Numbered from the stretch's first letter, positions 8,243 to 23,315 are shown. The stretch is DNA of 64,000 nucleotides from Candidatus Saccharimonadia bacterium (GCA_035544015.1 DATKIP010000093.1:345454-409453), one strand, 5' to 3'. Notes: generated by a model not told the origin, from the letters alone. Numbers and translations: made by a program.

Positions 8243-8371
8243 AAAGGAAGCTGTACCGCGCCACTCCAACCTCGCTAGACAACCCCGCCATCAATCGCCA
8301 CAATAAAACAACGTCCCAAAGCCAAAAAGCGCACCTACACATCCCCACCCTCACACCCACTTGGAGCCCTC

Positions 8372-8860
8372 ATGCGAGCCCAAACCACCCGACGCCGCAG
8401 GCACCGCATAATAGCACTCGCAGTGCTACTCGGCTTCCTCAGCCTCGTCAGCCCCGGTGTCACCCACCTCCTGCCACCACGAACCGGCCAAGAAGAGGGT
8501 GGCAACAGCCAGCAATTCAAGCTCGTGGCCATGTGGCGACTGCCAGGTGGCGCCAAAGACATCCAATGGAGCGCGTCCCCCGATGGCGATCATGGCGGCG
8601 GCGCCGACCCCCAGGCCGACCGCAGCCAGGTCAAGAACCAATGGGAGCAGCCAGTCACTGCCCACGAGGGGCAGACGATTTCGTTCACCGTTTTTGCCCA
8701 TCCTGGAGCCAATAGCCGAGCCCACTTCATCTGGTGTTTGATCTTTCGAATACACCAATCACTCGGGGAAACCATCGAGGAACAAGTAAACGAAAACGAC
8801 ACCCGATGGCAACGAGTAGGACCTATCGTAAGCCTCCATTGCCATTGGATTGTGCTCTAG
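8372..8860 (+). CDS. small Cys-containing secreted/anchored protein, divergent outlying member of the 10-22 kb family
   Basis: Same N-terminal logic (MRAQTTRRRRHRIIALAVLLGFLSLV: basic stretch plus one hydrophobic helix). C-terminal Cys-hydrophobic motifs (WCLIFRI, HCHWIVL). Weak; could be non-coding. Confidence 0.3.
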   Translation: MRAQTTRRRRHRIIALAVLLGFLSLVSPGVTHLLPPRTGQEEGGNSQQFKLVAMWRLPGGAKDIQWSASPDGDHGGGADPQADRSQVKNQWEQPVTAHEGQTISFTVFAHPGANSRAHFIWCLIFRIHQSLGETIEEQVNENDTRWQRVGPIVSLHCHWIVL

Positions 8861-8939
8861 ACGGTCTGCTACAACAGCGCTGAGGCCGGGACGCCTTCGC
8901 ACCTGGGACGGCACCCAACATCGTGCCGTCCCAGGTGTC

Positions 8940-10100
8940 CTACCGCCGCGCCAGCACCCTCATTTCCGCCGGCCGCCCCAATACCTCGATCCCCGTCACT
9001 CGCCGTCGCACCACAAAACCCGGTTGCGACTTCAGTGCCCAATCCAGCACCCCCACCTCACTCGTGAGCACCACCACCAAACCGCCCGGGCGCACCACCC
9101 GTACCGCCTCGGCCAGCATCCCCCCGTACAACGCCGGCAAATCCTCAGGGCGACCAATTTGCTTTCCCCAAGGCAAATTTGTCACCAATTTATCCACCGA
9201 CGCGTCTTCCAGCGGCAGCTTGCGTGCATCCATGCGTTCAATGCGCACCGGTTTGTGGCGCGGGCCAAAATTAGCCACCGCCGCTTTTACCGCTCCTACG
9301 TCAATATCACCACCCAGCAGCAAACCATGCCGCCCCGCCAAAGCCCGCTCAAGCAATATTGTCCCCGTGCCGCACAACGGGTCCAAAAACACGTCATCGT
9401 CAGCCGGTTCGCTCAGCCGCACCATGGCTGCCGCAATCGTCGGCCGCAAGGCTGCCGCCCGCTCCACCGCCCGGCCGCCCCGAGCACGATTCACACCGCT
9501 CGTCAGACGCAAGCTCACGGTAAGGTTGCGACCAACCTGGTGCAGCCACACCTCAAACGGCGCTTCCCCTGCATTCAGCCGCCAACCCGGACGCGCCCGG
9601 CCCACCCCAGCCTCCGCCGCCCGCTGCAAATCCACCCGCCGATACCCGCGCCAAGCCGCATCATCCGCCTGCGCTACCACCCGAAACACCACTCGCGCCG
9701 GCGTCGGCCGGCCGGCCAGGTGGCCCTGCGCGCGCAGTGCCGACTCCCACACCTCAGGCCGCCCCAGCGCCGCCGTCACCGCCTTCAAATCCACCGTTTT
9801 GCCGCTCAACGGTATCGTTTCCACCACTACAAACACGTCCTCAACCAACCGTAGTCCCAGCAACCCAGCCGGATCACTCGTCTGCACCCACACCAGCTCA
9901 CTACCCCGCGCGCGGCCCGTCGCCACCGGCGCCAAACCCAAACGAGCCGCCATTTCCTCAACGACCAAAACCCTCAAACCCGGAAACATCGATACCAGAA
10001 GTTTCATACGCCTATCGTACATGAATTCACCACCAGACCCGATGCCAATTCGCAAAAAGCCTTTGCTATCGTAAAATTGTTTTGTCTCACGCCCTGCCAA
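8940..10100 (-). CDS. THUMP-domain RNA (guanine-N2) methyltransferase (RlmL/Trm14-like)
   Basis: SAM motif I LDPLCGTGTILLE and motif IV VTNLPWG. N-terminal THUMP-like region. Confidence 0.7.
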   Translation of the reverse strand: MAGRETKQFYDSKGFLRIGIGSGGEFMYDRRMKLLVSMFPGLRVLVVEEMAARLGLAPVATGRARGSELVWVQTSDPAGLLGLRLVEDVFVVVETIPLSGKTVDLKAVTAALGRPEVWESALRAQGHLAGRPTPARVVFRVVAQADDAAWRGYRRVDLQRAAEAGVGRARPGWRLNAGEAPFEVWLHQVGRNLTVSLRLTSGVNRARGGRAVERAAALRPTIAAAMVRLSEPADDDVFLDPLCGTGTILLERALAGRHGLLLGGDIDVGAVKAAVANFGPRHKPVRIERMDARKLPLEDASVDKLVTNLPWGKQIGRPEDLPALYGGMLAEAVRVVRPGGLVVVLTSEVGVLDWALKSQPGFVVRRRVTGIEVLGRPAEMRVLARR

Positions 10101-10127
10101 CCCGCCTACGCTCGAGGAAGAGGTTAC

Positions 10128-10694
10128 GTGTCAGCCATCCAGGCCGGACGCCGCACACCCTGGCGACTTATCGCCCTCGCGGCAGCCGGTGCAGCCCTCC
10201 TTGCGGTTGCCACCCATGGCACTCCCGCCAGCGCACCCCACACCGGATCCGCGGCCAAGCCAAACAGCGTCGCCACTCCCGAGATCACCGGCCACCGCCC
10301 GCCGCCGGCGCCCCAGGCCGCCACAACCACCCCACCCCGCCGCCCCGACCAACGCCTGTTTAGCGTGTCCGTCTGGTGGATCAATGCCCACGACGCAGGC
10401 GTACAGAGCCAAATAAGCGTCGGCGGCAATGCCTATAACGCCCCCATAACCCCGCACCCAGGCCCACACGGCATCGCCTACTTCACCGTCGCAGCCGCCT
10501 TTGAAGAGACGATTGATGTAATCACTAGCCGCACGTCGCGCTACGGCATCGTCGGCACCCTCAACTGCAGCATCACCGATCAGCGCGGCGAGATCATCGA
10601 CCTGCAGTGGGTCGACGACGGACGACAGGGACTAGCCCGGTGTCAAAAGCTGGTAGGCTGGGGCCCCAACCCCAATCGACGCATCAAGGGCTAG
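10128..10694 (+). CDS. small secreted Cys-pair protein, family member A
   Basis: GTG start with RBS gaggaag. Basic N-terminus, hydrophobic helix, P/T/A linker, then a domain with NCSITD...ARCQKL cysteines. Paralogy to the other members supports coding. Confidence 0.5.
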   Translation: MSAIQAGRRTPWRLIALAAAGAALLAVATHGTPASAPHTGSAAKPNSVATPEITGHRPPPAPQAATTTPPRRPDQRLFSVSVWWINAHDAGVQSQISVGGNAYNAPITPHPGPHGIAYFTVAAAFEETIDVITSRTSRYGIVGTLNCSITDQRGEIIDLQWVDDGRQGLARCQKLVGWGPNPNRRIKG

Positions 10695-10747
10695 ACCGGC
10701 ACGGCCGAGATATATTCCGCGAAACCCATCGCCTTCGCCGGAAAAAC

Positions 10748-10783
10748 CACCCAGGACGGCCCACCGCCGAGCCGTCCTGGGTG
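10748..10783 (+). terminator. GC-rich hairpin CCAGGACGGCCCACCGCCG-N-GCCGTCCTGG (terminator-like, family-conserved)
   Basis: Perfect inverted repeat directly after member A. Near-identical copies at 11498 and 19804. Confidence 0.5.
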
Positions 10784-10811
10784 TACCACCTTACAACCAA
10801 AATTATTCCAA

Positions 10812-10862
10812 TACGCTACACTAAACATTGTCTCGGCCCAAGCCGCGTTCTTGCACATCCCA
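10812..10862 (+). promoter_or_regulatory. conserved ~50-bp upstream element (TACACTAAACAttGTCTCGGCCCAAGCCGCGTTCTTGCACATCCCAAGCC), putative promoter/5'UTR of member B
   Basis: Near-identical copy at 11557..11610 upstream of member C. Contains a -10-like TACACT followed by GTCTCGG. Confidence 0.45.
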
Positions 10863-10892
10863 AGCCTCTTGTCGTCGTTAAGGAGAAGCGCA

Positions 10893-11453
10893 ATGGGTGG
10901 CACCCAAACCCCAACTCGCCGCCGAAACAGCGCCGCAGCAGTATTCGTAGTGGGCGCGTTGCTCATCGGCATCGGAGCCCTCACGGGCAACCTCACCCCT
11001 ACGAATCGGCCCAGCCCGCACGCCACACCGTCGGCCGTCATCGACGCCGAGCCAAGACCAAGCTTCCAGCCAGGGCCACGTGACCGCAGAAGCCACCTCT
11101 ACGACCTGGAGGTTTATCGAGTTAACGCTCCGACTGATATCGCCATCACCTACACGATAGGCGCAGTACTGCATCTAGTCTCACCGAGCGATCAGGCCCG
11201 TGAAACCACCGGAAACATCTGGAAACGACGCGTCACCGCCCGCAACGACGAGACGATTCTGCTAAGAGCTGTCCCGGTCACCCGCGGCGCCCACGTGCCC
11301 ACGCACATGCAGTGCAAAATCTGGCTCATCGTGGTGCGCGGAAAAGGCGAGGTACGTGGTTTTGTCGCAGAGGATCCACCACATAAAGCCACGGTAAACG
11401 CCAACCAGTCGGTGAGTTGCTCGACTCCCGTCGCAGGCCCGTACCCCGACTAA
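10893..11453 (+). CDS. small secreted Cys-pair protein, family member B
   Basis: RBS aaggaga then ATG. N-terminus MGGTQTPTRRRNSAAAVFVVGALLIGIG. Close paralog of C (YDLEVYRVNAP, RETTGNIWKRR, QCKIW...SCST). Confidence 0.65.
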   Translation: MGGTQTPTRRRNSAAAVFVVGALLIGIGALTGNLTPTNRPSPHATPSAVIDAEPRPSFQPGPRDRRSHLYDLEVYRVNAPTDIAITYTIGAVLHLVSPSDQARETTGNIWKRRVTARNDETILLRAVPVTRGAHVPTHMQCKIWLIVVRGKGEVRGFVAEDPPHKATVNANQSVSCSTPVAGPYPD

Positions 11454-11497
11454 TCACCGAGACGTCCACGCCGGCGAGGCCAAGCCCCGCCGAAACC

Positions 11498-11533
11498 ACC
11501 CAGGACGGCCCACCGCCGCGCCGTCCTGGGTGG
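11498..11533 (+). terminator. family hairpin CCAGGACGGCCCACCGCCGCGCCGTCCTGG
   Basis: Perfect inverted repeat after member B. Confidence 0.5.
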
Positions 11534-11639
11534 CCCACCCGCACCAAACCGCCGCAATACGTTACACTAAACAATGTCTCGGCCCAAGCCGCGTTCTTGC
11601 ACATCCCAAGCCATTTCTCACCACGAGGAGACCCCACCT

Positions 11640-12140
11640 ATGGGCAACACTCAGACCCCAACACGCCGAAAATTTGGCGGACTACTGCTCACAGCCGGCC
11701 TGTTGCTTGGCGCCGTGGTAATCACCAGCAACCACCCCATCGGTCAGCCTGAACCATCCGCCACCCCGACCGCCGTCATTGATGCCGCCCCCGGCCCGGA
11801 CGACAACCAGGTATACACCTACGACCTCGAGGTTTTGCGCGTTCACGCACCGTCTGGAATTTCCATTTCCTACTCCATCGGCGCCATACCGTACGTGGTC
11901 CCGGCGAAAGCCCAGAAGCGCGAAACCACCGGAAACCTCTGGAAACGACGGATAACGGTCATCAACAACGAACTCGTCGTCTTAACTGCCGCGCCCAATG
12001 CGCGGGGCGCCCATATCCCTACACACTTGCAGTGCCGAATCAAAGCCGTTATGAGCGCCCATGCCACCTTCCCTCTCTCCGAGGATCCGCCAGGTAGAGC
12101 TACCACAAACGCCAGCGAAACGGTGAGTTGTTCGATCTAG
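11640..12140 (+). CDS. small secreted Cys-pair protein, family member C
   Basis: RBS aggag then ATG. N-terminus MGNTQTPTRRKFGGLLLTAGLLLGAVV. Paralog of B (YDLEVLRVHAP, RETTGNLWKRR, QCRIK...SCSI). Confidence 0.65.
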   Translation: MGNTQTPTRRKFGGLLLTAGLLLGAVVITSNHPIGQPEPSATPTAVIDAAPGPDDNQVYTYDLEVLRVHAPSGISISYSIGAIPYVVPAKAQKRETTGNLWKRRITVINNELVVLTAAPNARGAHIPTHLQCRIKAVMSAHATFPLSEDPPGRATTNASETVSCSI

Positions 12141-12161
12141 CAATCGCGACGGCGCCGAGAC

Positions 12162-12195
12162 ACCGCCGGGGATGGCGCAACGACGCCCCATCCCC
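12162..12195 (+). terminator. hairpin CCGGGGATGG-loop-CCATCCCCGG after member C
   Basis: 10-bp perfect stem. Confidence 0.45.
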
Positions 12196-12224
12196 GGCGC
12201 CGAACCCGAACATAAATCCAACAA

Positions 12225-12290
12225 AATAAAGACCCGAGACTCATTCGCGCAGTGGGTGGTCACCGCACGAAAAAGCTCGGGTCTTTATTA
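12225..12290. repeat. long inverted repeat AATAAAGACCCGAG...CTCGGGTCTTTATT (14-bp perfect arms, ~37-nt loop)
   Basis: Seen in sequence. Borders a ~270-bp low-GC island (12290..12560) upstream of dprA. Confidence 0.5.
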
Positions 12291-12503
12291 CACCCTTCAA
12301 CCTCACCTCGGGGGCGTTTTATGCGAAACGCGTATAGCGTAACGGGTGTGAAGGGACTAATCCGCCTGCAGTGAATAGCTAAAGGAGGGTGCATTTAGAT
12401 ATTCTTACAGGCGAATTAGTGGTATGTTGAGGTGGTTCTTGCCTACGCATTGCAGGCATAACTAAGATGCTAACACACTTTACGGATTCTGTCAACAATA
12501 ATT

Positions 12504-13352
12504 ATGCAAATCTCTAACATTTCTCACAACTCAAACTCGTTTCCAGATATACTCAGGCAAATTACCGAACCGCCCAGAAGCATAAACGTTTTAGGAACTT
12601 TGCCCAAAGACTCCATGGTAGCGGTCGTCGGCACGCGCCGGCCCACCGCTTACGGCGAACGCGTCACCTACCAAATAGCAGGGGAGTTGGCCAAGGCCGG
12701 CGCCGTCATCGTGAGCGGCCTAGCGATCGGCGTGGATTCCATCGCTCACCGCGCCGCCCTCGATGCCGGCGGCCGCACCGTGGCCGTACTAGCTCACGGT
12801 CTCGACCGCATCTACCCGCCCCGCCACCGCGGCCTGGCCAAAGAGATTCTCGCCTCCGGCGGTGCGCTGGTTTCTGAGTACGACATTGGCACCCCGGCCC
12901 ACAAACACCACTTCGTGGAGCGCAACCGCCTCATCGCCGGCCTGTGCGCCGCCACCATCGTGACCGAAGCCGCCACCAAAAGCGGCTCGCTCATCACCGC
13001 CCACCGCGCCGCCAAATACAACCGGCTCGTGATGGCCGTGCCCGGCAACATCACCTCCGTCTACTCAGCCGGCCCCAACAATCTGATCCGCACCAATATT
13101 GCCACCCCCATCACTTCCACGGCCGATGCCATCGTAGCGCTGGGCTTCCACGCCCGCGAGGCTGTGCCCGTGTCGGCCCAAAGCCCCGACGAAGCCAAAA
13201 TCCTCGAGCTCCTCGAAGGCGGCGCCAGCAATAGCGAAGACCTCATCGCCGGCGGCAATTTCAGCGCCGCCCAATTTGCCAACATCATCAGCCTCATGGA
13301 AATCACCGGCAAGGTCCGCAACCTCGGCGCCGGACAATGGGTGGTGCGGTAA
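12504..13352 (+). CDS. dprA: DNA processing protein A (DNA-uptake/recombination mediator)
   Basis: DprA Rossmann-like core (VAVVGTRRPTAYGERVT...SGLAIGVDSIAHRAAL...GGRTVAVLAHGLD). Confidence 0.85.
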   Translation: MQISNISHNSNSFPDILRQITEPPRSINVLGTLPKDSMVAVVGTRRPTAYGERVTYQIAGELAKAGAVIVSGLAIGVDSIAHRAALDAGGRTVAVLAHGLDRIYPPRHRGLAKEILASGGALVSEYDIGTPAHKHHFVERNRLIAGLCAATIVTEAATKSGSLITAHRAAKYNRLVMAVPGNITSVYSAGPNNLIRTNIATPITSTADAIVALGFHAREAVPVSAQSPDEAKILELLEGGASNSEDLIAGGNFSAAQFANIISLMEITGKVRNLGAGQWVVR

Positions 13353-13427
13353 GCATTTGGCTGTCCGCTCCCGCATGATTTACACTGGTACCCGTCTCGT
13401 TGTTTCCCGTCCAAGAGAGCAGGATGC

Positions 13428-13988
13428 ATGGCCACCAAGACCACCAGCACGCCCAGCCGAGCGAGAGGGCGGGTCCGCGCCGTCCTACTGTCTTTGATCC
13501 TCCTCGCTGGCGTCATCACGCTGGGTTCGCAAGTCACCATTAGCAAGAATCCCGCCCTGCCCAGCGAGAGCCCGCAGCCGGCCCAAACGACCTGTGTTCC
13601 GCCGCCGGGAGCCAAGACCTGCAAACCCGATCCCAAGCTCTATGTCGTCCTGGTGAAATGGAGCGGCCTCGACGGTAAACCCGAGGGGCCGGACATCAAG
13701 GTCGCGCCCGAACCACTCGTAGCCGACTCCGCCCCGGTCATCGACGCAGGACGCTGGGTAGCCATCACGACGGCCAATCCCACTGCCGCCAGCAAATTTG
13801 CGGTCACGGTCGGAGTGAGCGCGAAGAAGACTCCGCGAAAGATCGAGCAGGCCCAGACCAGCTGCCGTGTTTTTCCATTCACCGGAACCCAAATCACACT
13901 CCGCGCAGCCGAGGCCAGCATCGCCGGAAGTGACCCGATCACCACTGGCACAGGCAGTGATGTAACTCGCTGCCTGGTACCCCGGTAA
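13428..13988 (+). CDS. small secreted four-Cys protein, family member D (D/E/F subfamily)
   Basis: N-terminus basic plus LLSLILLAGVITL. Cys pair TTCVPPPGAKTCKP plus C-terminal SCRVF...RCLVPR. Shares LYVVLVKWSG / VAPEPL / WVAITTANP blocks with E and F. Confidence 0.6.
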   Translation: MATKTTSTPSRARGRVRAVLLSLILLAGVITLGSQVTISKNPALPSESPQPAQTTCVPPPGAKTCKPDPKLYVVLVKWSGLDGKPEGPDIKVAPEPLVADSAPVIDAGRWVAITTANPTAASKFAVTVGVSAKKTPRKIEQAQTSCRVFPFTGTQITLRAAEASIAGSDPITTGTGSDVTRCLVPR

Positions 13989-14011
13989 TCCGCAGGTACG
14001 AGACGCTCTGC

Positions 14012-14042
14012 CCGGAGGAACGGCCACGAACCGTTCCTCCGG
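14012..14042 (+). terminator. family hairpin CCGGAGGAACGGCCACGAACCGTTCCTCCGG
   Basis: Perfect inverted repeat after D, followed by the conserved GGCACCACC. Confidence 0.5.
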
Positions 14043-14155
14043 GGCACCACCAACTATTCGCTAGCCATAAACCAATCCTTGGCACTACAATAATTTCGTC
14101 TCGTGTCGCTCAGGAAAGCTCGTTCACATCCACGACCCAAGGGAGCTCCCACTCC

Positions 14156-14752
14156 ATGCCCAACGAGCAGCAAACACGCGGGATCAGCGCCGCAGGAGCT
14201 GCTGTCTTCGTCATCGGCCTCATCGCCATAGTAGGCCTAGCCGGTAACAACGATTCCGACAGCCGCCCGTCATCCTGTGGCCAGAAGCCAATAACCCATT
14301 CCGGAATTCCCGGAGCCCGCTTCACGAAGTTCGACTGCCTCCCGGGAGCTACCGCGCTCCCGGCTGTCACCCGGGCCCAGCGCGACCAAGAACTATACCT
14401 GGTCCTAGCCGGCTGGAAGGGCACCTCCAACGCCACCATCGGAGTCGTCCCTCCGCCCCTCGCCTCCACGGACTCGCTCTTCCAGGTCAGTGGCAATGAG
14501 GGCCTATGGTTTGGCCTGACCACCGCCAACACCAACCCTGCCATCAAGAATAGTAAGGGGAAGCCGGTGAAAGTCAGGGTGGTCATCCAAGCCAACCTCA
14601 GGGTAGGCAGCCGTTTGACCTGCGCCATCTATCGCATAACGAACTTCGACACACCCGGAAATGTTGCCAGTCAACACCGGCTGGAGCACAAAGAGTTCCA
14701 CCCCGACCGGCCTCTACGCAACCCGACCTTGGAATGCAGCATTCCCCTCTAG
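14156..14752 (+). CDS. small secreted four-Cys protein, family member E
   Basis: RBS aagggag. LYLVLAGWKG, VVPPPL, WFGLTTANT blocks. Cysteines SSCG...FDCLPG and TCAIYRITN...ECSIPL. Confidence 0.6.
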   Translation: MPNEQQTRGISAAGAAVFVIGLIAIVGLAGNNDSDSRPSSCGQKPITHSGIPGARFTKFDCLPGATALPAVTRAQRDQELYLVLAGWKGTSNATIGVVPPPLASTDSLFQVSGNEGLWFGLTTANTNPAIKNSKGKPVKVRVVIQANLRVGSRLTCAIYRITNFDTPGNVASQHRLEHKEFHPDRPLRNPTLECSIPL

Positions 14753-14779
14753 CACCAGCGGCACGAGACACCCGCACCA

Positions 14780-14814
14780 CCCGAGAACGGCGCCCTCCAG
14801 CGTCGTTCTCGGGG
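14780..14814 (+). terminator. family hairpin CCCGAGAACGGCGCC...CGTCGTTCTCGGGG
   Basis: Inverted repeat after E. 3' flank conserved with the F copy. Confidence 0.5.
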
Positions 14815-14860
14815 CACCACCCACCTAGGCGCTCCTTCACCCCAATCGGAAGGATCCATC

Positions 14861-15502: not shown

Positions 15503-15521
15503 GCACGAGACGCCCGCACCA

Positions 15522-15558
15522 CCCGGGAACGGCGCCACACAGCGGTGCCGTTCCCGGG
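15522..15558 (+). terminator. family hairpin CCCGGGAACGGCGCC...GGTGCCGTTCCCGGG
   Basis: Inverted repeat after F. Confidence 0.5.
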
Positions 15559-15602
15559 GCACCACCGCTTGAACCCGCGCCCATACCTGCTACAATATCA
15601 AA

Positions 15603-16559
15603 ATGAAGTTTTGGCAACAGCTACCGCAGCCGTTCTTTGTGCTAGCCCCCATGGACGACGTCACCGACGTGGTTTTTCGGCAGCTCATAGCCGAAATCGC
15701 GCCACCAGACGTCTTCATGACCGAATTCGTCTCGGTGGACGGCCTCCAATCAGCCGGCCGCACCGTCACGCTCGAACGCCTGCGCATCGCCCCCGGCAGC
15801 GCCAGCAACCTCGTGGCCCAAATCTGGGGCAACGACCCCGAGCGCTTCTACCGTTCCGCCCAAGACATCGCCGCGCTGGGCTTCGCCGGCATCGACATCA
15901 ACATGGGCTGCCCCGAGAAGGGGATTGTAGCCCGCGGCTGCGGTGGCGGCCTCATCGGCCACCCCGACGCCGCGGCCGACATCATCGCCGCCACCAAGGC
16001 CGGCGCGCCCCATCTGCCCGTCAGCGTCAAGACTCGCCTCGGCCTCGGCCAACCCATCACCGAAGACTGGGCTGGCTTCCTGCTCGGCCAAGACCTTGCC
16101 GCCCTCACCATCCACGGCCGGACCGTGCGCGAAATGAGCAAAGTCCCGGCGCACTGGGACGAAATCGCCAAAGTAGTGCGCCTACGCAACCAACTGGCCG
16201 TGCCCACCAAGATCATCGGCAACGGCGACATCGAAAGCCGCGCCCACGGCCTGCAATTGGCCTCAGACACCGGCGTCGACGGCCTCATGATCGGCCGTGG
16301 CATCTTCCACGACCCCTTCATCTTCGACCCCGCCCAGGCCACCGCTGACCCCCAAAAACGCCTCGCCATCCTCCTCCGCCACGTCGAGCTCTACGAGCAG
16401 TGGGGGAGTACCAAGTCGTTCCAAACCCTGAAGAAATTCTTCAAAATCTATGCCAACTCCTGGCCCGGCGCCGCCGAACTGCGCGCCGAACTCATGGAGA
16501 CTTCCATGCCAGCGCAGACACGAGGCATTATTGCCGCACATTTAGGAAAAATCCAGTAG
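15603..16559 (+). CDS. dus: tRNA-dihydrouridine synthase
   Basis: Dus/TIM-barrel motifs FVLAPMDDVTDVVFR and GIDINMGCPEK. Confidence 0.85.
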   Translation: MKFWQQLPQPFFVLAPMDDVTDVVFRQLIAEIAPPDVFMTEFVSVDGLQSAGRTVTLERLRIAPGSASNLVAQIWGNDPERFYRSAQDIAALGFAGIDINMGCPEKGIVARGCGGGLIGHPDAAADIIAATKAGAPHLPVSVKTRLGLGQPITEDWAGFLLGQDLAALTIHGRTVREMSKVPAHWDEIAKVVRLRNQLAVPTKIIGNGDIESRAHGLQLASDTGVDGLMIGRGIFHDPFIFDPAQATADPQKRLAILLRHVELYEQWGSTKSFQTLKKFFKIYANSWPGAAELRAELMETSMPAQTRGIIAAHLGKIQ

Positions 16560-16580
16560 AATAATTCACGTCTCGTACAG
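16548..16580 (+). promoter_or_regulatory. putative promoter of member G (TAGAATAAT -10-like box followed by CACGTCTCGTACA); overlaps the last codons of dus
   Basis: Motif shared with the upstream regions of H, E and N. Confidence 0.4.
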
Positions 16581-16628
16581 CCTGAGACGTCCTTCCCATC
16601 CCAACGGTTGCCCCAGGAGGCAAACAAA

Positions 16629-17213
16629 ATGAGCCGCACCGCCCAGCGCGGAGTGATTGCCCGGATCGGTGGCCTCTTGTTCACAGTCGTGGCGCTCTTA
16701 GCCGGCACTGTAGCGATCATGAGCTCGACCGGCACCAAGACCTGCAAGTCCGCACCGGCCCCCGCTCCAGCCGTCCAGTTGGCAGCCCAAACCGCCGCGG
16801 CCCCCGAGAGCACCCGGTACGTCTTCTTGGCCCAATGGACTCGCTTCCAGCCCAACGAAGTCAACATTCTCTACACCGACTACCTGGAAGATGGCCACCC
16901 GCGCAAGCAGATCGTCCTCGACACTGACAAGGGCCCCAGCAGCTGGAAGACCGTGATCACCGCGCCAAACGGCAGCAAGCCCACGCTCGAGATCACGCCG
17001 CCCCCCTGGGCCTGCAACGATGTCCATGGGCTCACCAAAGGCGCCTCTGTGAGCTGTGTCGTTTACCTGGTCAGCACCAGCAAGCCGGAAGACAGCATGA
17101 TCCCGTCCAACGTCCAGGCCCGTGCCACCAACACGACCGGACAAAGCGCAATTTGCAAGGACTTCACCGCCGGGAAGCGGAAGCACGCCTCAGAACTCGA
17201 TCCCGAGCACTAG
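16629..17213 (+). CDS. small secreted Cys-containing protein, family member G
   Basis: RBS aggagg, spacer 8 nt, ATG. MSRTAQRGVIARIGGLLFTVVALLAG...TGTKTCKSAP. C-terminal WACND...SCVVYLVS...ICKDF. Confidence 0.6.
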   Translation: MSRTAQRGVIARIGGLLFTVVALLAGTVAIMSSTGTKTCKSAPAPAPAVQLAAQTAAAPESTRYVFLAQWTRFQPNEVNILYTDYLEDGHPRKQIVLDTDKGPSSWKTVITAPNGSKPTLEITPPPWACNDVHGLTKGASVSCVVYLVSTSKPEDSMIPSNVQARATNTTGQSAICKDFTAGKRKHASELDPEH

Positions 17214-17261
17214 CCGGGCACCGCGTACATCCGAGACTGTCCCGCCGAGGCACAGCACCCC

Positions 17262-17300
17262 GGCACGGGGGCCGCAATGGCGCAAAACAGCGCCATCGCG
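17262..17300 (+). terminator. hairpin GGCCGCAATGGCGC-loop-GCGCCATCGCGGCC after member G
   Basis: Near-perfect 14-bp inverted repeat. Sibling copy at 18508. Confidence 0.5.
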
Positions 17301-17407
17301 GCCCCCCGCACCATCGTCCCAACCCCAGCACCCGTCCGTCGCTCTAGCAGCCCTTTCACAACCACGGCCACGCAAAGCCCCATCAGCCACCCAGCGAGCG
17401 TCAGATC

Positions 17408-17725
17408 GTGCTCCGATTGGCCTGGCGGCAAGCCCCCGACGGCGTCACCATCCGCTACCGGATCGGCCACCAGCGCGAAATCACCATAACCGACGGCCGG
17501 CACGAACACGAAGGGCTTGAGTTTCCCGTCCCCGCCGAAATCGGCGACGAGATCAAGCTTTCTATCACGCCGGTCTTCGAAAACGAATTCACCCCCACGA
17601 ACGTGCGCTGCTTCATCTACCAGATCAAGTTCGGCCGACGCATCGAGGGGCACGTGGATCCGCCACACGGCTATACCCCCGACGCGCTTGAATCTGCCCA
17701 CTGCAAGTGGGTAGTCACGCCCTAG
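17408..17725 (+). pseudogene. N-terminally truncated remnant of the small Cys-pair family (domain only, no anchor or signal)
   Basis: Carries the family C-terminal hallmarks (RCFIYQIKF...HCKWVVTP). The upstream region is occupied by the G hairpin. A P/T/A linker-like stretch is present in another frame (17277 ORF), implying frameshift or deletion decay. Confidence 0.35.
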
Positions 17726-17823
17726 CCGGTTCGGGGACGGCGGCATCACCGTCGTCCCCGAACCCCCAAATCTATTGAAATCCGCGCCGTCCCGAGGCCA
17801 AACCTCAAAAACCCTTTTAAGCA

Positions 17824-17858
17824 AAAATCCAGTAGAATAATTCACGTCTCGTACAACG
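17824..17858 (+). promoter_or_regulatory. putative promoter of member H (TAGAATAAT...CACGTCTCGTACA), part of a ~130-bp duplicated block
   Basis: Near-identical to 16548..16580 including AAAAATCCAGTAG, which is the terminal KIQ-stop of dus at the G locus. Confidence 0.4.
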
Positions 17859-17903
17859 TGAGGCTTCTTTCCATCCCAACTTTTGCCCCAGGAGGCAGAC
17901 AAC

Positions 17904-18461
17904 ATGACTCGCACCGCCCGGCGCGGAGTGATTGCTCGGATCGGTGGCCCCGTGGTCACGGTCTCAATACTAGCGATCGGAGCCATAGTGATCGCCAACT
18001 CAACCGGCACCAAGACCTGCAAGTCCGCACCGGGCCCCGCTACTCCGGCCACCACCAAGCCCGCATCGGCCTCCAGCGACTGCTCCACCCCACCCGGCTC
18101 CCAGACCACCGCTCTTCGGCATGTCCACACGTACTACGGCACCTCCACAAAAACCGGCTACGCTATGGGCGCCCAGTACCAAGTCGGGCCGATTAGCGGC
18201 AATATACTCCCGTTCTCTCGCGGCAAGCGCGAAGCCAGCTGGACCGGCCTACTCACCGCCTTCGAAGGCGACCCACTCACAATCGACATCACCGGGGTCG
18301 GCGACGCTAACCCGACAGCCAAAGTCGCGTGCGCCTTCTACCGCATCACCGACCCGGCCAATCTCAGGGCCAACGCCGTACCTGCCAACCTCGTCGGAGT
18401 ACCCCAGTCCGGCACGGGCCCAAAGGGCCACGCCCACTGCGAAATAATCTCCGGCGAGTAG
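17904..18461 (+). CDS. small secreted four-Cys protein, family member H
   Basis: RBS ggagg then ATG. MTRTARRGVIARIGGPVVTV...TGTKTCKSAP (N-terminus near-identical to G). CST...ACAFYRITD...HCEIISGE. Confidence 0.6.
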   Translation: MTRTARRGVIARIGGPVVTVSILAIGAIVIANSTGTKTCKSAPGPATPATTKPASASSDCSTPPGSQTTALRHVHTYYGTSTKTGYAMGAQYQVGPISGNILPFSRGKREASWTGLLTAFEGDPLTIDITGVGDANPTAKVACAFYRITDPANLRANAVPANLVGVPQSGTGPKGHAHCEIISGE

Positions 18462-18507
18462 TCCCTCACGCCACCCGAGACACCCCGCCGAGGCACAACG
18501 CCCCGGC

Positions 18508-18545
18508 GCAGAGGCCGCAATGGCGCAGCGTTGCGCCATTGCGGC
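18508..18545 (+). terminator. hairpin GGCCGCAATGGCGCAGCGTTGCGCCATTGCGGCC after member H
   Basis: Perfect 15-bp palindrome. Confidence 0.55.
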
Positions 18546-18652
18546 CCACCCGCACCCTGCATTGATATTAAAAATCCGACATTATGCCGTAAAATTAAGT
18601 CGTCTCGCGTCCAGCCCCGCAGCACCCCACAATCCACCACCGGAGGACTTCT

Positions 18653-19135
18653 GTGCTCACTCGTACCCCCACCAGGCCTCGATCAGGCAAGAGATCCAAG
18701 GCCGTGTGGGCGATTATTGCCATAGGGCTCCTGATCCTCGGACTCCAAGCCCTCTCCGCACCCAGCAATCGATCCGCACCCCACAGCGGCGCCACCCCTA
18801 CCACTACCCAAACCGCCGAAGTCATCGAACTCGGCGGCAACTGGAACAGCGTAGATGGTGACGTCAAGATCACCATCACCACCAACGGCCATGCGATCCC
18901 CTTGCCAGAAACCTTCCCCGGCAACCTCTACGACTGGAACCAACCACACGTGGTCGCTCCAGGCGACGAGGTGGTACTCAACATCAGGCCGGTCAACCCG
19001 CAAGACAAGCACTATACGATGTATTGCAAAATCTTCGGTCCGAACGGAATCCCGGTCGACGAACAGCCCGGCATCCACGACGACCATATCAACGACGGGG
19101 TCACCTGCTACTACCCGTTGCGGCCCAAGCCCTAG
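18653..19135 (+). CDS. small secreted Cys-pair protein, family member I
   Basis: RBS ggagga then GTG. Basic N-terminus plus AVWAIIAIGLLILGL. YCKIFGPNG...TCYYPL. Confidence 0.55.
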   Translation: MLTRTPTRPRSGKRSKAVWAIIAIGLLILGLQALSAPSNRSAPHSGATPTTTQTAEVIELGGNWNSVDGDVKITITTNGHAIPLPETFPGNLYDWNQPHVVAPGDEVVLNIRPVNPQDKHYTMYCKIFGPNGIPVDEQPGIHDDHINDGVTCYYPLRPKP

Positions 19136-19162
19136 CTGCCTTCACGAGGCGTGAGACGCCGG

Positions 19163-19197
19163 CCCCAGGATGGCACACCGAAGTGTCATCTTGGGGC
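19163..19197 (+). terminator. hairpin CCCCAGGATGG-loop-TCATCTTGGGG after member I (G-U containing stem as RNA)
   Basis: Seen in sequence. Confidence 0.35.
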
Positions 19198-19243
19198 ACG
19201 CCAGCATGAAACCCTCCACCCTTGATGCCCGAGGAGAACATCC

Positions 19244-19774
19244 GTGCGTACCACCGCTCAGCGCGCCCCCAGTAGGCTGCGCCAAACGCTGCTTGTCATC
19301 CTTGCCGGCGCGCTAGCGATCGGCATCGGAACCAACTTGCCAACCAGCCAATCCGCCACACCCCCAGCCGCACGACCCACCCGGCACCTCTCGGTCGTGC
19401 CGCAGCCCACAGTCAGCACCGAGCCCAGTGCCATCACGAGCGCACCGGTCGCCACGGGGCCCGAAGAGCGATGGTTCCATCTGCAAGGCCACTGGGACCT
19501 GCCGGCCAAGCCCGGCAAACCCCACGTTCGGGTTGTCATTACCGTCATCGTCTTGGGCTCCGCTCCCGACCCAACCCCCTCCGAGGACCCCTTCGGTAAC
19601 TTCGATAGTTGGGTATCCACCCCGGGCCCCGGCGTAATGCTTCGCATTGCCCCCAAAACGCCCGAGCCCCGCACCCCAAAGATGAGCTGCAGCATCCATG
19701 ACGAACATGACCTGCCCATCGGCATCGTCTACCCGGTGGATCGCACGGGCGGAGCGTTGTGCGTGGCCCGGTAA
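19244..19774 (+). CDS. small secreted Cys-pair protein, family member J
   Basis: RBS gaggag then GTG. RLRQTLLVILAGALAIGIG. Long P/T/A linker. SCSIHDEHD...LCVAR. Confidence 0.55.
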   Translation: MRTTAQRAPSRLRQTLLVILAGALAIGIGTNLPTSQSATPPAARPTRHLSVVPQPTVSTEPSAITSAPVATGPEERWFHLQGHWDLPAKPGKPHVRVVITVIVLGSAPDPTPSEDPFGNFDSWVSTPGPGVMLRIAPKTPEPRTPKMSCSIHDEHDLPIGIVYPVDRTGGALCVAR

Positions 19775-19803
19775 ATCGAGCTGAGCTCCACGAGGCACCA
19801 TAG

Positions 19804-19835
19804 CCCAGGACGGCCCACCGCCGGGCCGTCCTGGG
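19804..19835 (+). terminator. family hairpin CCAGGACGGCCCACCGCCGGGCCGTCCTGG
   Basis: Third copy of the A/B-type hairpin. Confidence 0.5.
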
Positions 19836-19897
19836 CTCTTGCCCAACCCGCTCCACGCTTGCATCCTCCACCTCCACCAGATACGGTAGGGAATACC

Positions 19898-20053
19898 ATG
19901 AAGAAAGCTGTCGTACTCATAATCGGCGTTCTGGTATATCTTTGGTTTCTCCAAGCAGCCCAAGACGTGGCCGCCAGCCAGCTCACCGAGCTCCAATACT
20001 TATACACAAGCTCAGGCGCTCAAGCCGCCGCCATTTCAAATCCCAACAGATAG
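19898..20053 (+). CDS. 51-aa small hydrophobic/secreted peptide (MKKAVVLIIGVLVYLWFLQAAQDVAAS...)
   Basis: RBS gggaa then ATG. Signal- or TM-like N-terminus. Codon usage is markedly lower GC3 than neighbouring genes. Followed by an AT-rich region carrying TGGTATAAT. Confidence 0.3.
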   Translation: MKKAVVLIIGVLVYLWFLQAAQDVAASQLTELQYLYTSSGAQAAAISNPNR

Positions 20054-20107
20054 CTCATCTACCCACCACTATTTCGTCAAAACACGCAGGGTAAATTTAT
20101 TATGCTC

Positions 20108-20120
20108 GTGGTATAATCAG
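20108..20120 (+). promoter_or_regulatory. extended -10 promoter TGGTATAAT upstream of member K (followed by CGGCTCGTAC)
   Basis: Consensus TGnTATAAT seen in sequence. Confidence 0.4.
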
Positions 20121-20273
20121 CCACTTTCGGCTCGTACAAATCTAGCGTCATCCCCAAGTTAATGGCCCTGCAACCACAATTATTGGCGTGTCAAAACCAC
20201 AGAGTTCCGATACAATGGTTCCCGGCTTGCGTGGCAAGCCCCGTCCCATACCCACCGCAGGAGGGATTGTGCA

Positions 20274-20771
20274 GTGGTTTTGACCGGGCAACGTCCATCA
20301 ACCCGACGACGAGGCATGCGCAGCGTAGTCACGACCGTGCTCATCGTTGCAGCCGTTCTGTGGGGACTGCCTAGGCTCAACCCCGACACGCAGACCTGCT
20401 CCGCCGTGGCACAAACCAGCTCCCAACCTCAAGGCGACTGCTCCACCGGACCCAAAATCCGATTCCGGCTCTCGTGGTCCGAAGCACCCGAAGGCCTGGT
20501 CGTCGAGTACTACGCCGACGGCCACGGCCTGGGCCCAACGCACCCCGACACTGCATACGACGAATGGGACGTCACGCTGCCGGGAACCGTCGGGTTCATT
20601 AGCCTCAGCGCCCCCAGAGGCTCCTACATCGGCTTCTTGAAGTGCCGGCTTTCAAACCCCGACACCAACGAGCAATACGACGCCGCCGAGTACTTCCCCG
20701 TGGATGGACCCCTACAGCAGCTGCCGAGCGGAAAATGGGGCATTGAATGCCACACGCCGGGCATAGCCTAA
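20274..20771 (+). CDS. small secreted four-Cys protein, family member K
   Basis: RBS ggaggg then GTG. VVTTVLIVAAVLWGL. TQTCS...GDCSTG and KCRLSNPDT...ECHTPG. Confidence 0.55.
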   Translation: MVLTGQRPSTRRRGMRSVVTTVLIVAAVLWGLPRLNPDTQTCSAVAQTSSQPQGDCSTGPKIRFRLSWSEAPEGLVVEYYADGHGLGPTHPDTAYDEWDVTLPGTVGFISLSAPRGSYIGFLKCRLSNPDTNEQYDAAEYFPVDGPLQQLPSGKWGIECHTPGIA

Positions 20772-20901
20772 CACCGGGTGAACCTCCATTCGCCTGATCA
20801 CTCCGGGATGGCCCAATGTCGCGCTATCCCGGAAGGTCCTAGAATTATCATTCTCATCTGCGCTAAAATCATGTGGTCCGCTGTTCGCCCGTCGAAAGGT
20901 A

Positions 20902-21399
20902 GTGTTCGTGACAACCACCCAGCGGCACCGGCCAAAAGCCCGGGGTAGCGGCAGGGTACTCCTGGCGATAGCCGGCCTCATCGCTGCCGTTATTGTCATC
21001 CCGTTCCCAGCCAAAACCCACCCCAACCCCGTCACTACGCCATCGGTAACCCCAGCCGGTCCCCGGGCAGTCGAATTCAAATTCGACGCCACCCTCACCG
21101 GACTGGCCCATACCGAGATCGAAACCGAGGTTGGTGGAGCCGCACAGCCGCATCCCAATATCATCACTCCCACCTGGGAGACCACTCGGCCAGGCACCGA
21201 GTACCAGTCGGCCGAGATGACGATCACGCCCCGGGAAACCACCAACCGGTCGCGCGTAACCGGCGTCAGAACCATCTGCCAAATCTTCGTGCGCATCCTC
21301 CCGAACGGCGCGTTCGAAGGCCAGGCCTACGTGCCCGGGTTTAGTGTGAATGAACAGATCACGTGCCGAGCACATCCACCCTACGCGCTAACCGGGTAG
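20902..21399 (+). CDS. small secreted Cys-pair protein, family member L
   Basis: GTG start (20902 or 20908), RBS gaaagg. VLLAIAGLIAAVIVI. ICQIFVRIL...TCRAHPP. Only 6 bp upstream of M (operon). Confidence 0.55.
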   Translation: MFVTTTQRHRPKARGSGRVLLAIAGLIAAVIVIPFPAKTHPNPVTTPSVTPAGPRAVEFKFDATLTGLAHTEIETEVGGAAQPHPNIITPTWETTRPGTEYQSAEMTITPRETTNRSRVTGVRTICQIFVRILPNGAFEGQAYVPGFSVNEQITCRAHPPYALTG

Positions 21400-21405
21400 G
21401 GCATC

Positions 21406-21933
21406 ATGCTCCGCACCCGCAGTCGCATCGCACCCGCAGTCCTCGCGCTCGCTGCTCTTGCTAGCTTTGCTTGGTTGGCCGCCGTGCCACATCCGCCGGC
21501 CAACCATGATGCCACCATCGTCATCTACTACCCAACCCCAGCCCAGGCCGACGCCGTACCGGCACCCCGACCGCCGACCACGATCGACGACGATCACGTC
21601 CGCTACTGGGCGGTGATCGAATGGGAGCGTTCTGCCGGCGTATCAATCGCCTACCTGATCGGACCAGTAGCGCCAGCCCCCACTACCGACAAACGGCCGG
21701 ATGGGGTCGAAAAAATTCTCATTACGGCACCTCGCGACAGCCTCATTCAGGTACATGTAGTGCCTCACCGGCTGCCTCGTGGAAACAGCTACGCCAGCCA
21801 ATGCGCCGTGTATCTCGTCACCCAGCTCGCACCGCTGGAAGACAACGAAAAGATACCGAACATGCGGGCCCACGACGTCACCACCCCCGGCAAAACCGGC
21901 ATCACCTGCACGCTCACAGCCACCGGCGTGTAG
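21406..21933 (+). CDS. small secreted Cys-pair protein, family member M
   Basis: ATG start. APAVLALAALASFAWLAAV. QCAVYLVT...TCTLTATGV. Confidence 0.55.
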   Translation: MLRTRSRIAPAVLALAALASFAWLAAVPHPPANHDATIVIYYPTPAQADAVPAPRPPTTIDDDHVRYWAVIEWERSAGVSIAYLIGPVAPAPTTDKRPDGVEKILITAPRDSLIQVHVVPHRLPRGNSYASQCAVYLVTQLAPLEDNEKIPNMRAHDVTTPGKTGITCTLTATGV

Positions 21934-21951
21934 CAATTGCCCGCCTCACAC

Positions 21952-21985
21952 CCCCAAGACGGCCCACTGTCGTGCCGTCTTGGGG
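21952..21985 (+). terminator. family hairpin CCCCAAGACGGCCCACTGTCGTGCCGTCTTGGGG
   Basis: Perfect inverted repeat. Sibling at 22552. Confidence 0.5.
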
Positions 21986-22069
21986 CCCTCCATCGCACTA
22001 ATACCACCACATGCGTTACAATAATCGGCGTCTCGTAAACCCAACCCGACCCGCAAAGGATGGCGCAAC

Positions 22070-22531
22070 GTGATCACCGGAACGAGAAGGAGGGGCCGGC
22101 TCCTCCTCGTCGTCCTAGCAGTCATCGGCCTCCTAGCCGGTGTAGCCGAGGGAATGGGGGCCTTCAGCCAGCAACGCACCCTCGTGCTCGTTGCCCAATG
22201 GACCAATACCCCAGGGGGCGTAGAGATCGATGCCGCAGCCAATGGCATTAAGCTGGACCCGACAGATCCCAGCTACACCACCGGTACCCCCCTCGACGCC
22301 GCTACAGGCTTCCGCAGGATCACCGTAACGGCCGCTTTCGCCCACATCATTGTCGGTAACGTCATACCCGCAATACGAATCGATAGCAGGGTCCGCTGCG
22401 CCGTCTTCGACCCCCAGATCAAAGCGCCACTTTTTTCAGATACTGTCACCGGACGAACCGGTGCCCAGGCTACCTGCTACTACAACGAGACGGTACGGCC
22501 AACACCGGCACCACCCACACCGACGAGATAA
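22070..22531 (+). CDS. small secreted Cys-pair protein, family member N
   Basis: GTG start. RRRGRLLLVVLAVIGLLAGVAEG. RCAVFDPQI...TCYYNETV. Upstream TACAATAAT...CGTCTCGTAA motif at 22013..22036. Confidence 0.55.
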   Translation: MITGTRRRGRLLLVVLAVIGLLAGVAEGMGAFSQQRTLVLVAQWTNTPGGVEIDAAANGIKLDPTDPSYTTGTPLDAATGFRRITVTAAFAHIIVGNVIPAIRIDSRVRCAVFDPQIKAPLFSDTVTGRTGAQATCYYNETVRPTPAPPTPTR

Positions 22532-22551
22532 CTCGCCGGCCACAACCACCC

Positions 22552-22583
22552 CCAAGACGGCCCACTGCGGCGCCGTCTTGGGC
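22552..22583 (+). terminator. family hairpin CCCAAGACGGCCCACTGCGGCGCCGTCTTGGG
   Basis: Perfect inverted repeat after N. Confidence 0.5.
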
Positions 22584-22656
22584 TCACCCCGCTCGCATAC
22601 AAAAAGACCCCGCCGCACCGAAGCGCTTGGGGGTCTTTTTGATCAGCCGGTAGCAA

Positions 22657-23265: not shown

Positions 23266-23315
23266 GGGAGGGTCACCGAAGCAACCTCTTAGCCCTTTCG
23301 TTAATGGGTGTCACA

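Follow-up and report, generated by a model that had tools for sequence, protein, structure and literature searches.

Sixteen paralogous genes in five slots

We analysed a tandem array of small paralogous genes at positions 8372-22531 of a 64-kb stretch of DNA, hereafter the window, from a metagenome-assembled genome of Candidatus Saccharimonadia (Candidate Phyla Radiation, CPR, or Patescibacteria). The genes fill five gaps, or slots, in a conserved gene backbone: (out), (A, B, C), (D, E, F), (G, X, H, I, J), and (K, L, M, N). A first-pass annotation, read from the sequence alone, had counted at least 15 co-oriented paralogs; all 15 of those open reading frames (ORFs) stand on the plus strand with the coordinates it gave, and a 16th, X, had been overlooked. 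The source annotation of the family members (VMT30_08340 to VMT30_08410) reads hypothetical protein throughout. The members are listed here, with scores from a leave-one-out profile hidden Markov model (HMM) in bits; TM stands for transmembrane.

8372-8860, plus strand: member out, 162 aa; slot 1, in the gap between pth and a methyltransferase gene; TM helix 13-31; Cys122, Cys157; 30.6 bits
10128-10694, plus strand: member A, 188 aa; slot 2; 19.1 bits; VMT30_08340
10893-11453, plus strand: member B, 186 aa; slot 2; BLASTP to C 1e-42, 46-47% identity
11640-12140, plus strand: member C, 166 aa; slot 2; VMT30_08350
13428-13988, plus strand: member D, 186 aa; slot 3; additional Cys pair in the stalk, 56/65; 14.9 bits
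14156-14752, plus strand: member E, 198 aa; slot 3; additional Cys pair in the stalk, 41/61
14861-15502, plus strand: member F, 213 aa; slot 3; Tyr (TAT) at the second conserved Cys position
16629-17213, plus strand: member G, 194 aa; slot 4; first 62 residues 54% identical to H
17408-17725, plus strand: member X, 105 aa; slot 4; domain only; 39.4 bits; VMT30_08385
17904-18461, plus strand: member H, 185 aa; slot 4
18653-19135, plus strand: member I, 160 aa; slot 4; 24.2 bits
19244-19774, plus strand: member J, 176 aa; slot 4; 9.6 bits, best shuffle 5.3
20274-20771, plus strand: member K, 165 aa; slot 5; weakest by sequence; 5.5 bits
20902-21399, plus strand: member L, 165 aa; slot 5; ends 6 nt before M
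21406-21933, plus strand: member M, 175 aa; slot 5
22070-22531, plus strand: member N, 153 aa; slot 5; shortest stalk; 21.2 bits

For F, a GTG start at 14861 restores the Arg-rich N-terminus and the TM helix, and the NCBI call likewise has 213 aa. The 3' end of this gene holds a tract of eight cytosines (C8, 15447-15454) just upstream of its Tyr (TAT) codon, and the frame is intact. X has the domain and both of its conserved cysteines; because it is without a TM helix, a Shine-Dalgarno sequence, or the promoter motif described below, it is probably a truncated relic. L is probably co-transcribed with M.

A shared architecture with strongly diverged sequences

The 15 full-length members run from an Arg/Lys-rich N-terminus through one TM helix of about 19-23 residues and a stalk rich in Pro, Ala, and Thr into a domain of 105-142 aa. 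Three to six Arg/Lys residues (one in E) stand ahead of the hydrophobic stretch, whose mean Kyte-Doolittle value over 19 residues is 1.7-2.6, and in the linker Pro accounts for 21% of residues, Ala for 15%, Thr for 13%, and Ser for 9%. The common helix, linker, and domain of the first-pass annotation are thus borne out by hydropathy, linker composition, and alignment. Its statement that there is no lipobox also holds: when each of the 15 N-termini was read by eye, [LVI][ASTVI][GAS]C was present in none, the contexts of the first Cys after the helix (TKTC, PSSC, ADAC, TQTC, QTTC) are not lipoboxes, and nine members have no Cys ahead of the domain.

Across the alignment of the C-terminal domain, where mean column identity is 25%, one Cys is invariant (16/16) and a second is found in 15 of the 16 sequences, the exception being F, with a TAT Tyr codon where E has TGC. 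The conserved Cys pair claimed at the outset therefore stands, while the distance given for it, 20-45 residues, narrows to 24-38, and F has to be excepted. An additional N-proximal Cys pair does occur in D, E, F, H, and K as described; in G there are two further cysteines, one in the stalk and the other in the domain. The Cys count is even (2 or 4) in 15/16 members, which is the bias expected of oxidatively folded exported proteins. In well-occupied alignment columns, hydrophobic residues alternate at 7/9/11/13, 27/29/31, 83/85, 104/106/108, and 150/152, and this is the pattern predicted of inward-facing β-strand positions. Conservation is limited to such core positions, two Trp, and the two Cys, and for this reason we consider that exposed surfaces differ among copies.

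Membership was assessed by leave-one-out HMM, each member being compared with 200 shuffles of itself. All own shuffles are outscored by 15 of the 16 members; K is marginal (5.5 bits vs 11.9 for its best shuffle) and has the same architecture, a Cys spacing of 35, and a 'W..AP.G' motif in common with X. The alignment and HMM that the first-pass annotation had proposed as a check thus recover shared Cys positions and a shared domain. BLAST links between members are sparse (B-C, 1e-42; E-F, 4e-13; G-H, 2e-14, a match spanning just the N-terminal 62 residues), and the profile is all that joins A, L, and N to the family. With so few pairwise links and such low column identity, the strong diversification noted earlier is evident; the subfamilies B/C, D/E/F, and G/H proposed with it are also recovered, the likeness of G to H being limited to those first ~62 residues. 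The family HMM gave no match in the 64-kb window beyond the members, and no decayed extra copies were found in the array gaps. Searches of Pfam, NCBIfam, PADLOC, and PHROGs matched no curated family, and a sequence-profile search of the PDB likewise returned nothing.

Signals around each gene

Most copies have a GGAG-type Shine-Dalgarno sequence 5-10 nt upstream. Further upstream lies the motif TAnA[AC]T-N4-10-GTCTC[GA], which occurs nine times in the window when both strands are searched, each time on the plus strand and each time upstream of a member. The distance from the end of the −10 box to the start codon is 41-71 nt, and the members concerned are A, B, C, D, E, G, H, I, and N.

10072-10089, plus strand: promoter or 5'-untranslated-region motif of A
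10817-10835, plus strand: promoter motif of B, in repeat D4, 92% identical to the C copy
11563-11581, plus strand: promoter motif of C, in repeat D4
13381-13399, plus strand: promoter motif of D
14086-14103, plus strand: promoter motif of E, also in the sigma-70 scan
16557-16575, plus strand: promoter motif of G, overlapping the dus stop codon; repeat D8, 88% identical to the H copy
17833-17851, plus strand: promoter motif of H, repeat D8
18590-18607, plus strand: promoter motif of I, also in the sigma-70 scan
22017-22035, plus strand: promoter motif of N

In G (16569-16591) and H (17841-17862), GTCTCG falls within a short inverted repeat (ACGTCTC...GAGACGT in G) that could form a stem-loop at the mRNA 5' end and is not obvious in other members.

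A GC-rich hairpin of 12-17 bp, with a folding energy (dG) of -20 to -36 kcal/mol, follows 2-53 nt past the stop codon in 15 of the 16 genes, L being the sole gene without its own. Eight of these hairpins belong to repeat family D1 and two to D5. Nine of the 19 perfect hairpins in the window with arms of at least 10 bp fall in the array, and since similar hairpins trail other genes, they are apparently the terminator style of this genome.

8901-8936, plus strand: hairpin of out, 14 bp, dG -29.4; putative terminator
10748-10783, plus strand: hairpin of A, D1
11496-11533, plus strand: hairpin of B, D1; 94% identical to the A copy
12164-12199, plus strand: hairpin of C, D1
14012-14042, plus strand: hairpin of D, GC-rich
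14780-14813, plus strand: hairpin of E, D1
15522-15558, plus strand: hairpin of F, D1
17267-17306, plus strand: hairpin of G, D5
17728-17764, plus strand: hairpin of X, GC-rich
18513-18546, plus strand: hairpin of H, D5; 82% identical to the G copy
19158-19201, plus strand: hairpin of I, GC-rich
19802-19837, plus strand: hairpin of J, D1
20802-20833, plus strand: hairpin of K, GC-rich
21952-21985, plus strand: hairpin of M, D1
22551-22582, plus strand: hairpin of N, D1

Predicted fold and resemblance to MmpS

The structural check suggested by the first-pass annotation, AlphaFold modelling followed by Foldseek, gave confident 7-8-strand β-sandwiches for both members modelled, M and the distant member E, in AlphaFold2 models built on the 16-sequence alignment. 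In the M model, residues 11-25 form a TM helix, the stalk is of low confidence, and residues 64-171 contain seven strands with a predicted local distance difference test score (pLDDT) of ~90; Cys133 lies in the strand at 130-138 and Cys168 in the strand at 166-171, with a loop of low confidence between them. The E model has eight strands over residues 78-196 (pLDDT 75-92) and places the extra Cys41 and Cys61 in the stalk. Because the two Cys are conserved, are placed in the last two strands of the model, and belong to proteins with even Cys counts in 15 of 16 cases, a disulfide between them is probable.

Foldseek found no match in the PDB at E <= 0.001 for the M or the E model. With weak E-values, an MmpS5 structure stood at rank 4 of ~350,000 chains for both models (M to 9mvz_A, E 0.027, probability 0.90; E to 8em5_A, E 0.05, probability 1.00, TM-score 0.65 normalised to the target). 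Judging from the models, the nearest specific solved fold appears to be that of mycobacterial MmpS5, a resemblance that is reproducible but weak. In MmpS4/5, a TM helix is joined to a C-terminal β-sandwich whose conserved Cys pair forms an inter-sheet disulfide (bioRxiv 10.64898/2026.01.07.698164). Like the MmpS proteins (PF05423), which include the M. tuberculosis MmpL RND transporter accessory subunits MmpS4 and MmpS5, the proteins encoded here have ~140-200 aa, an N-terminal TM helix, a linker, and a C-terminal β-sandwich; in both, the penultimate strand carries a conserved Cys that hydrophobic residues follow, and another Cys lies close to the C-terminus. Unlike MmpS, they have a longer Pro/Thr-rich stalk and a variable Cys spacing (24-38, against a fixed 23 in the deposited MmpS chains compared), and they occur as 16 tandem hyperdiverged copies in a CPR bacterium rather than as one copy per transporter operon in a mycolate actinobacterium; sequence or profile similarity between the two is absent.

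Membership in MmpS, a candidate prompted by the 'C-x-I ... C' pattern, was rejected. None of the 16 members matched PF05423 at E <= 1 in hmmscan, and hhalign of two family alignments, A1 and A2, against an alignment of four deposited MmpS4/5 chains gave probabilities of 1.2% (A1) and 0.3% (A2), aligning only 7-11 columns around the Cys, where 'l-C-x-I' stands opposite MmpS 'I-T-C-R-I'. No MmpL/RND gene was found among the array neighbours or the eight largest other window ORFs scanned. The family appears to be built like MmpS in architecture, yet membership is not demonstrable from its sequences. The earlier remark that no characterised family could be recognised consequently stands as regards curated families, and is to be qualified by an architecture and a predicted fold that reproducibly resemble those of mycobacterial MmpS.

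Among other likenesses, two structural-genomics proteins from Bacteroides vulgatus, 2lrg (YP_001300941.1) and 3u6g (DUF4425), show 7-12% identity at E 0.01-0.04. Generic Ig/FN3/GOLD-type β-sandwich modules of surface and adhesion proteins resemble the models at the superfold level only; in contrast to the tandem modules of those proteins, there is here a single domain with a family-specific Cys staple. Neither a pilin nor a known immunity or inhibitor fold was among the fold matches of the M and E models.

Distribution across sequence databases

When 1.84 billion 50%-identity representatives of ~15 billion proteins were searched exhaustively with the HMM, 23 matches were returned, namely the 16 window proteins and seven weak others. 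These seven (P0015, P0018-P0023) were rejected as homologs, being long, mostly repeat-rich proteins whose scores are summed over 3-9 stretches. Since orthologs of 50-90% identity could hide behind representatives, two word-index searches of 90% clusters were added, and both returned self-matches only. P0024 and P0025, considered as strain variants, differ only by V/M at the GTG start. A scan of metagenome DNA gave a single match, which was spurious: at locus L082, an unrelated protein happens to contain 'ETTGNIWK'. A 525-kb JGI contig and Logan contig L081 are 100% identical to the window, and these other records are for that reason taken to be the same population. The search of other genomes and metagenomes that the first-pass annotation had recommended has thus found no copies elsewhere, and its view that the family is lineage-specific is sustained; as far as these ~15 billion proteins go, the family appears to be without a detectable homolog outside one population.

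Genomic setting

Five relatives with Der proteins 82-86% identical to that of the window keep the backbone wherever their contigs reach, in the order dac-der-pth-(methyltransferase, minus)-dprA-dus-(51-aa gene)-LT-like (minus)-clpB, where LT denotes lytic transglycosylase. The backbone genes that divide or bound the slots are listed here.

8940-10100, minus strand: UPF0020/THUMP-type methyltransferase gene; PF01170 8e-32; syntenic in L004 and L007; divides slots 1 and 2
12504-13352, plus strand: dprA; 72-81% identical and syntenic in L002, L004, and L007; PF02481 on the Logan contig; divides slots 2 and 3
15603-16559, plus strand: dus; 72-80% identical and syntenic in four relatives; PF01207; divides slots 3 and 4
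19898-20053, plus strand: 51-aa membrane-protein gene; tblastn 53-59% identity in L002 and L007, in the gap between dus and the LT-like gene; divides slots 4 and 5
22657-23265, minus strand: exported lytic-transglycosylase-like gene; 70-79% identical and syntenic in relatives; distal array boundary

The first-pass annotation had noticed dprA and dus within the array; both are present, and the number of embedded backbone genes rises to four with the methyltransferase and 51-aa genes. The 51-aa protein (MKKAVVLIIGVLVYLWFLQ...), in the gap between J and K, is conserved and has one TM helix. For the LT-like protein there is no Pfam match at 1e-5, and its label comes only from an E-S...GLGQ motif read by eye.

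In the five relatives, no HMM or tblastn match to the family was found within the region examined, which reaches up to 10 kb to either side of der, and the dus-to-LT gap measures ~190 nt in relative L003 against 6.1 kb in the window. Because the same gaps in relatives hold other exported proteins, the backbone can be regarded as a hotspot for variable surface genes. Reading by eye identified two proteins in L002 (12584-15320), one anchored and Pro/Thr-rich (393 aa), the other glycosidase-like (431 aa) and carrying dockerin-like repeats at its C-terminus; in L007 (15794-17257) it identified a Pro-rich secreted protein and a sortase-like ORF. That the array is not an obvious foreign island, as the first-pass annotation had it, follows from the synteny of the backbone in five relatives together with a uniform base composition.

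The window, from a soil-type, high-GC member of the Saccharimonadia, has a GC content of ~0.61, and across positions 1-64000 its GC skew (-0.11 to -0.30) and AT skew (+0.04 to +0.21) are extreme and hold uniformly in every 2-kb bin. The plus strand is strongly C/A-rich over the 64 kb and carries nearly every long ORF. This composition of the coding strand inflates overlapping spurious ORFs, and it probably contributes to the Pro/Thr/Ala-rich linkers. GC content at third codon positions (GC3) is 0.65-0.82 in the members, and the nearby genes der, pth, dprA, dus, and clpB give 0.76-0.82. No RNA genes were found in a search of the array. The ORFs between members belong to the backbone only, and there is no reverse transcriptase there, in a search that was not extended to the rest of the genome.

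Some further features of the neighbourhood can be recorded. In L003 (8333-8578), the dprA match covers only residues 1-59 and 247-282 of the window DprA, which suggests an internal deletion and a competence gene that may be a remnant. Beyond the array, the 927-aa ClpB-like ORF (23580-26363, plus strand) begins with an Arg/Pro-rich extension that is implausible, the alignment of relatives starts only at ~24000, and an overlapping 120-aa ORF in another frame (23596-23958, plus strand) resembles a genuine multi-TM membrane protein; given the start of that alignment and the overlapping ORF, the true clpB start is probably downstream. A 1104-aa multi-PAS/GAF sensor histidine kinase (48825-52139, plus strand) is an unusual sensory investment for a reduced CPR genome. 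The 947-aa protein at 59360-62203 (plus strand), with TrwB/VirD4-type coupling-protein and HerA-like ATPase domains (PF10412, PF01935), may be part of a system for type IV secretion or related to conjugation, close to the end of the window.

Patterns of divergence

In the two young pairs, B/C and G/H, the regulatory and anchor modules are more conserved than the ectodomain. For B/C, the best promoter window is 95% and the hairpin repeat 94% identical, compared with ~55-75% in the coding region. For G/H, identity is 85-90% across the promoter, 5'-untranslated region, and first ~40 codons, 78-82% in the hairpin, and 30-55% in the ectodomain. The repeat spacing of 1243-1276 nt leads us to conclude that a two-gene unit (G-type plus X/I-type) was duplicated.

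A search for simple-repeat switches with Tandem Repeats Finder yielded only 4 trivial arrays, and the sole homopolymer of at least 7 nt is the C8 tract in F. Invertible elements and silent cassettes were not detected, the inverted repeats found being terminator hairpins, and positions 8000-23500 hold no direct repeats like the template and variable repeats of diversity-generating retroelements beyond the paralog and terminator repeats themselves. From background knowledge, the array can be compared with the Mycoplasma Vlp/Vsa and Borrelia paralogous families, which are likewise tandem paralogs in a reduced-genome, host-dependent bacterium. As in Vlp/Vsa-type families, the 5' regulatory and anchor module is conserved and the exposed region hypervariable; unlike them, the array has no lipobox, repeat switches, invertible elements, or silent cassettes that we could detect.

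Discussion

In regard to what these genes encode, it is most likely a variable surface family formed by the expansion of small anchored β-sandwich proteins stapled by a disulfide, with a function that we infer. To the fuller proposal, that this genome-private family of anchored, stalked β-sandwich proteins constitutes a diversified repertoire of surface binding modules, we assign a probability of about 0.5. The products would be bitopic proteins in which an Arg/Lys-rich cytoplasmic N-terminus and an uncleaved signal anchor set an N-in/C-out orientation by the positive-inside rule, and a flexible Pro/Ala/Thr-rich stalk of ~20-50 residues would hold the 7-8-stranded β-sandwich outside the membrane. 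The Cys of the penultimate strand ('C-x-I/V' motif) and that of the last strand would form a disulfide closing a 24-38-residue loop, variable in both length and sequence. Each gene is its own cassette, composed of a −10 box, GTCTCG 4-7 nt further on, a Shine-Dalgarno sequence, the ORF, and a hairpin, and would presumably give one transcript, L/M being the sole pair; the shared promoter element may co-regulate the copies. Such cassettes would have multiplied by tandem duplication and spread into the five neighbouring intergenic gaps. The modules would then recognise or adhere to variable structures on host or partner cells, a role that is likely because cultivated Saccharibacteria are episymbionts. 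Hypervariable surface proteins are remodelled by actinobacterial hosts, which also direct an Esx effector against Saccharibacteria (PMC13622651).

Several points weigh against this proposal. The nine promoter motifs compare with an expectation of 0.22 (maximum 3) in 300 second-order Markov simulations, a count made post hoc in that the pattern was derived from the same sequences, so that its exclusive placement is the informative point. The hairpins are without a U-tract, and termination is assumed. Nei-Gojobori estimates for B/C (dN 0.41, dS 1.13, dN/dS ~0.37) and for G/H (N-terminus, dN 0.25 and dS 0.33; ectodomain, dN 0.98 and dS 0.80, dN/dS ~1.2) are suggestive only, with few codons, saturated dS in most pairs, and weak alignments, that of the G/H ectodomain being unreliable at 35% identity. 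Because B/C is under purifying selection overall and dS is saturated, positive selection is not demonstrated; the lower dS of the G/H 5' module may reflect flanks exchanged by recombination or gene conversion and not selection alone. The available records are all identical and represent one population, in which no between-strain turnover is seen. Finally, 'private' is to be read as having no detectable homolog, since fast-evolving small domains can escape HMM detection. The interpretation in the first-pass annotation, a lineage-specific and rapidly diversifying family of disulfide-stabilised cell-surface proteins such as adhesins or host-, phage-, or partner-interaction proteins, is supported in part: lineage specificity, diversification, and a signal anchor with a stalk are borne out, and the disulfide, the surface exposure, and any adhesin or interaction role are predictions.

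Alternatively, the proteins may be very distant MmpS homologs, acting like MmpS4 and MmpS5 as accessory subunits that dock on or stabilise a large transporter or envelope machine. The common architecture, including a conserved Cys pair that in MmpS4 is a disulfide across the sheets, would fit, as would the retrieval of MmpS5 by two independent models and the pairing of the Cys motifs by hhalign. We nevertheless think this unlikely, given the failure of PF05423 and hhalign to support it, the lack of an MmpL/RND gene among the window ORFs scanned, the poor suitability of sixteen unrelated surfaces for one conserved partner, and the absence of the family from the der loci of relatives. The array might instead be a collection of extracytoplasmic immunity proteins or inhibitors, each copy directed against a different envelope-targeting effector or hydrolase, such as Esx/LXG toxins or lysozyme-like enzymes. 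Orphan-immunity islands are tandem sets of individually promoted, diversified small exported paralogs, and small membrane-anchored, disulfide-bonded β-proteins are a common format of lysozyme and effector inhibitors; the Esx effector of the hosts points in the same direction. Such islands usually mix unrelated families, however, whereas a single family is present here, and neither the array nor its immediate surroundings contain a gene for a toxin, an effector, or secretion, the intervening genes all being backbone. As there is also no PADLOC match at E <= 0.1, and the fold searches brought up no known immunity protein or inhibitor, we hold this explanation to be distinctly doubtful.

A charged leader, a hydrophobic N-terminal helix, a β-domain, and a C-terminal variable loop closed by the putative disulfide also give the proteins a superficial likeness in layout to type IV pilins or pseudopilins, in which a disulfide bounds the variable 'D-region', and two reports describe type IV pili as central to saccharibacterial episymbiosis and host attachment (PMC9894109, PMC11623550). 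That the members are subunits of host-attachment pili is nonetheless very improbable: the prepilin-peptidase motif G|F/M-x-x-x-E occurs in 0/15 N-termini, and the AlphaFold2 models have a short TM helix and a low-confidence Pro/Thr stalk instead of a continuous α1 helix packed on the sheet. Hardly credible, in our view, is the explanation that the ORFs are non-functional, as chance frames in C/A-rich DNA or a decaying pseudogene array. It could appeal to the strand bias that inflates overlapping ORFs, to the truncation of X, and to the missing Cys of F; against it, GC3 is raised in the called frame, Shine-Dalgarno sequences, motifs, and hairpins are correctly positioned, the protein profile and core pattern persist although DNA identity is near random, the AlphaFold2 folds are confident, and fifteen copies have intact ORFs.

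The proposal of a surface binding-module repertoire can be carried a step further. In this distinctly speculative and rather improbable scenario, an MmpS-like disulfide-stapled β-sandwich, possibly captured from an actinobacterial host lineage, would have become a stalked receptor and been amplified to 16 individually expressed cassettes, whose conserved flanks would let recombination or gene conversion shuffle the ectodomains. If this were true, the array would be a host-recognition repertoire of a kind not seen before in a CPR episymbiont, a private, fast-evolving 'surface code' that tracks variable host envelopes or evades recognition by hosts or phages.

Our findings bear on a wider matter in the biology of CPR/Patescibacteria, which need to attach to hosts and whose surface recognition molecules beyond type IV pili are almost unknown. 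Drawn from one uncultured population, they have value as a generator of hypotheses and not as a demonstrated mechanism. The resemblance to the MmpS fold without a sequence signal provides a test case for anchored β-sandwich design beyond mycobacteria, and the locus illustrates that a new family can arise and spread among housekeeping genes without mobile-element signatures. A genome on the scale of under 1 Mb here devotes ~9 kb to 16 copies of a family seen in no other sequenced organism, and the array is thereby a concrete candidate for lineage-specific host or partner specificity.

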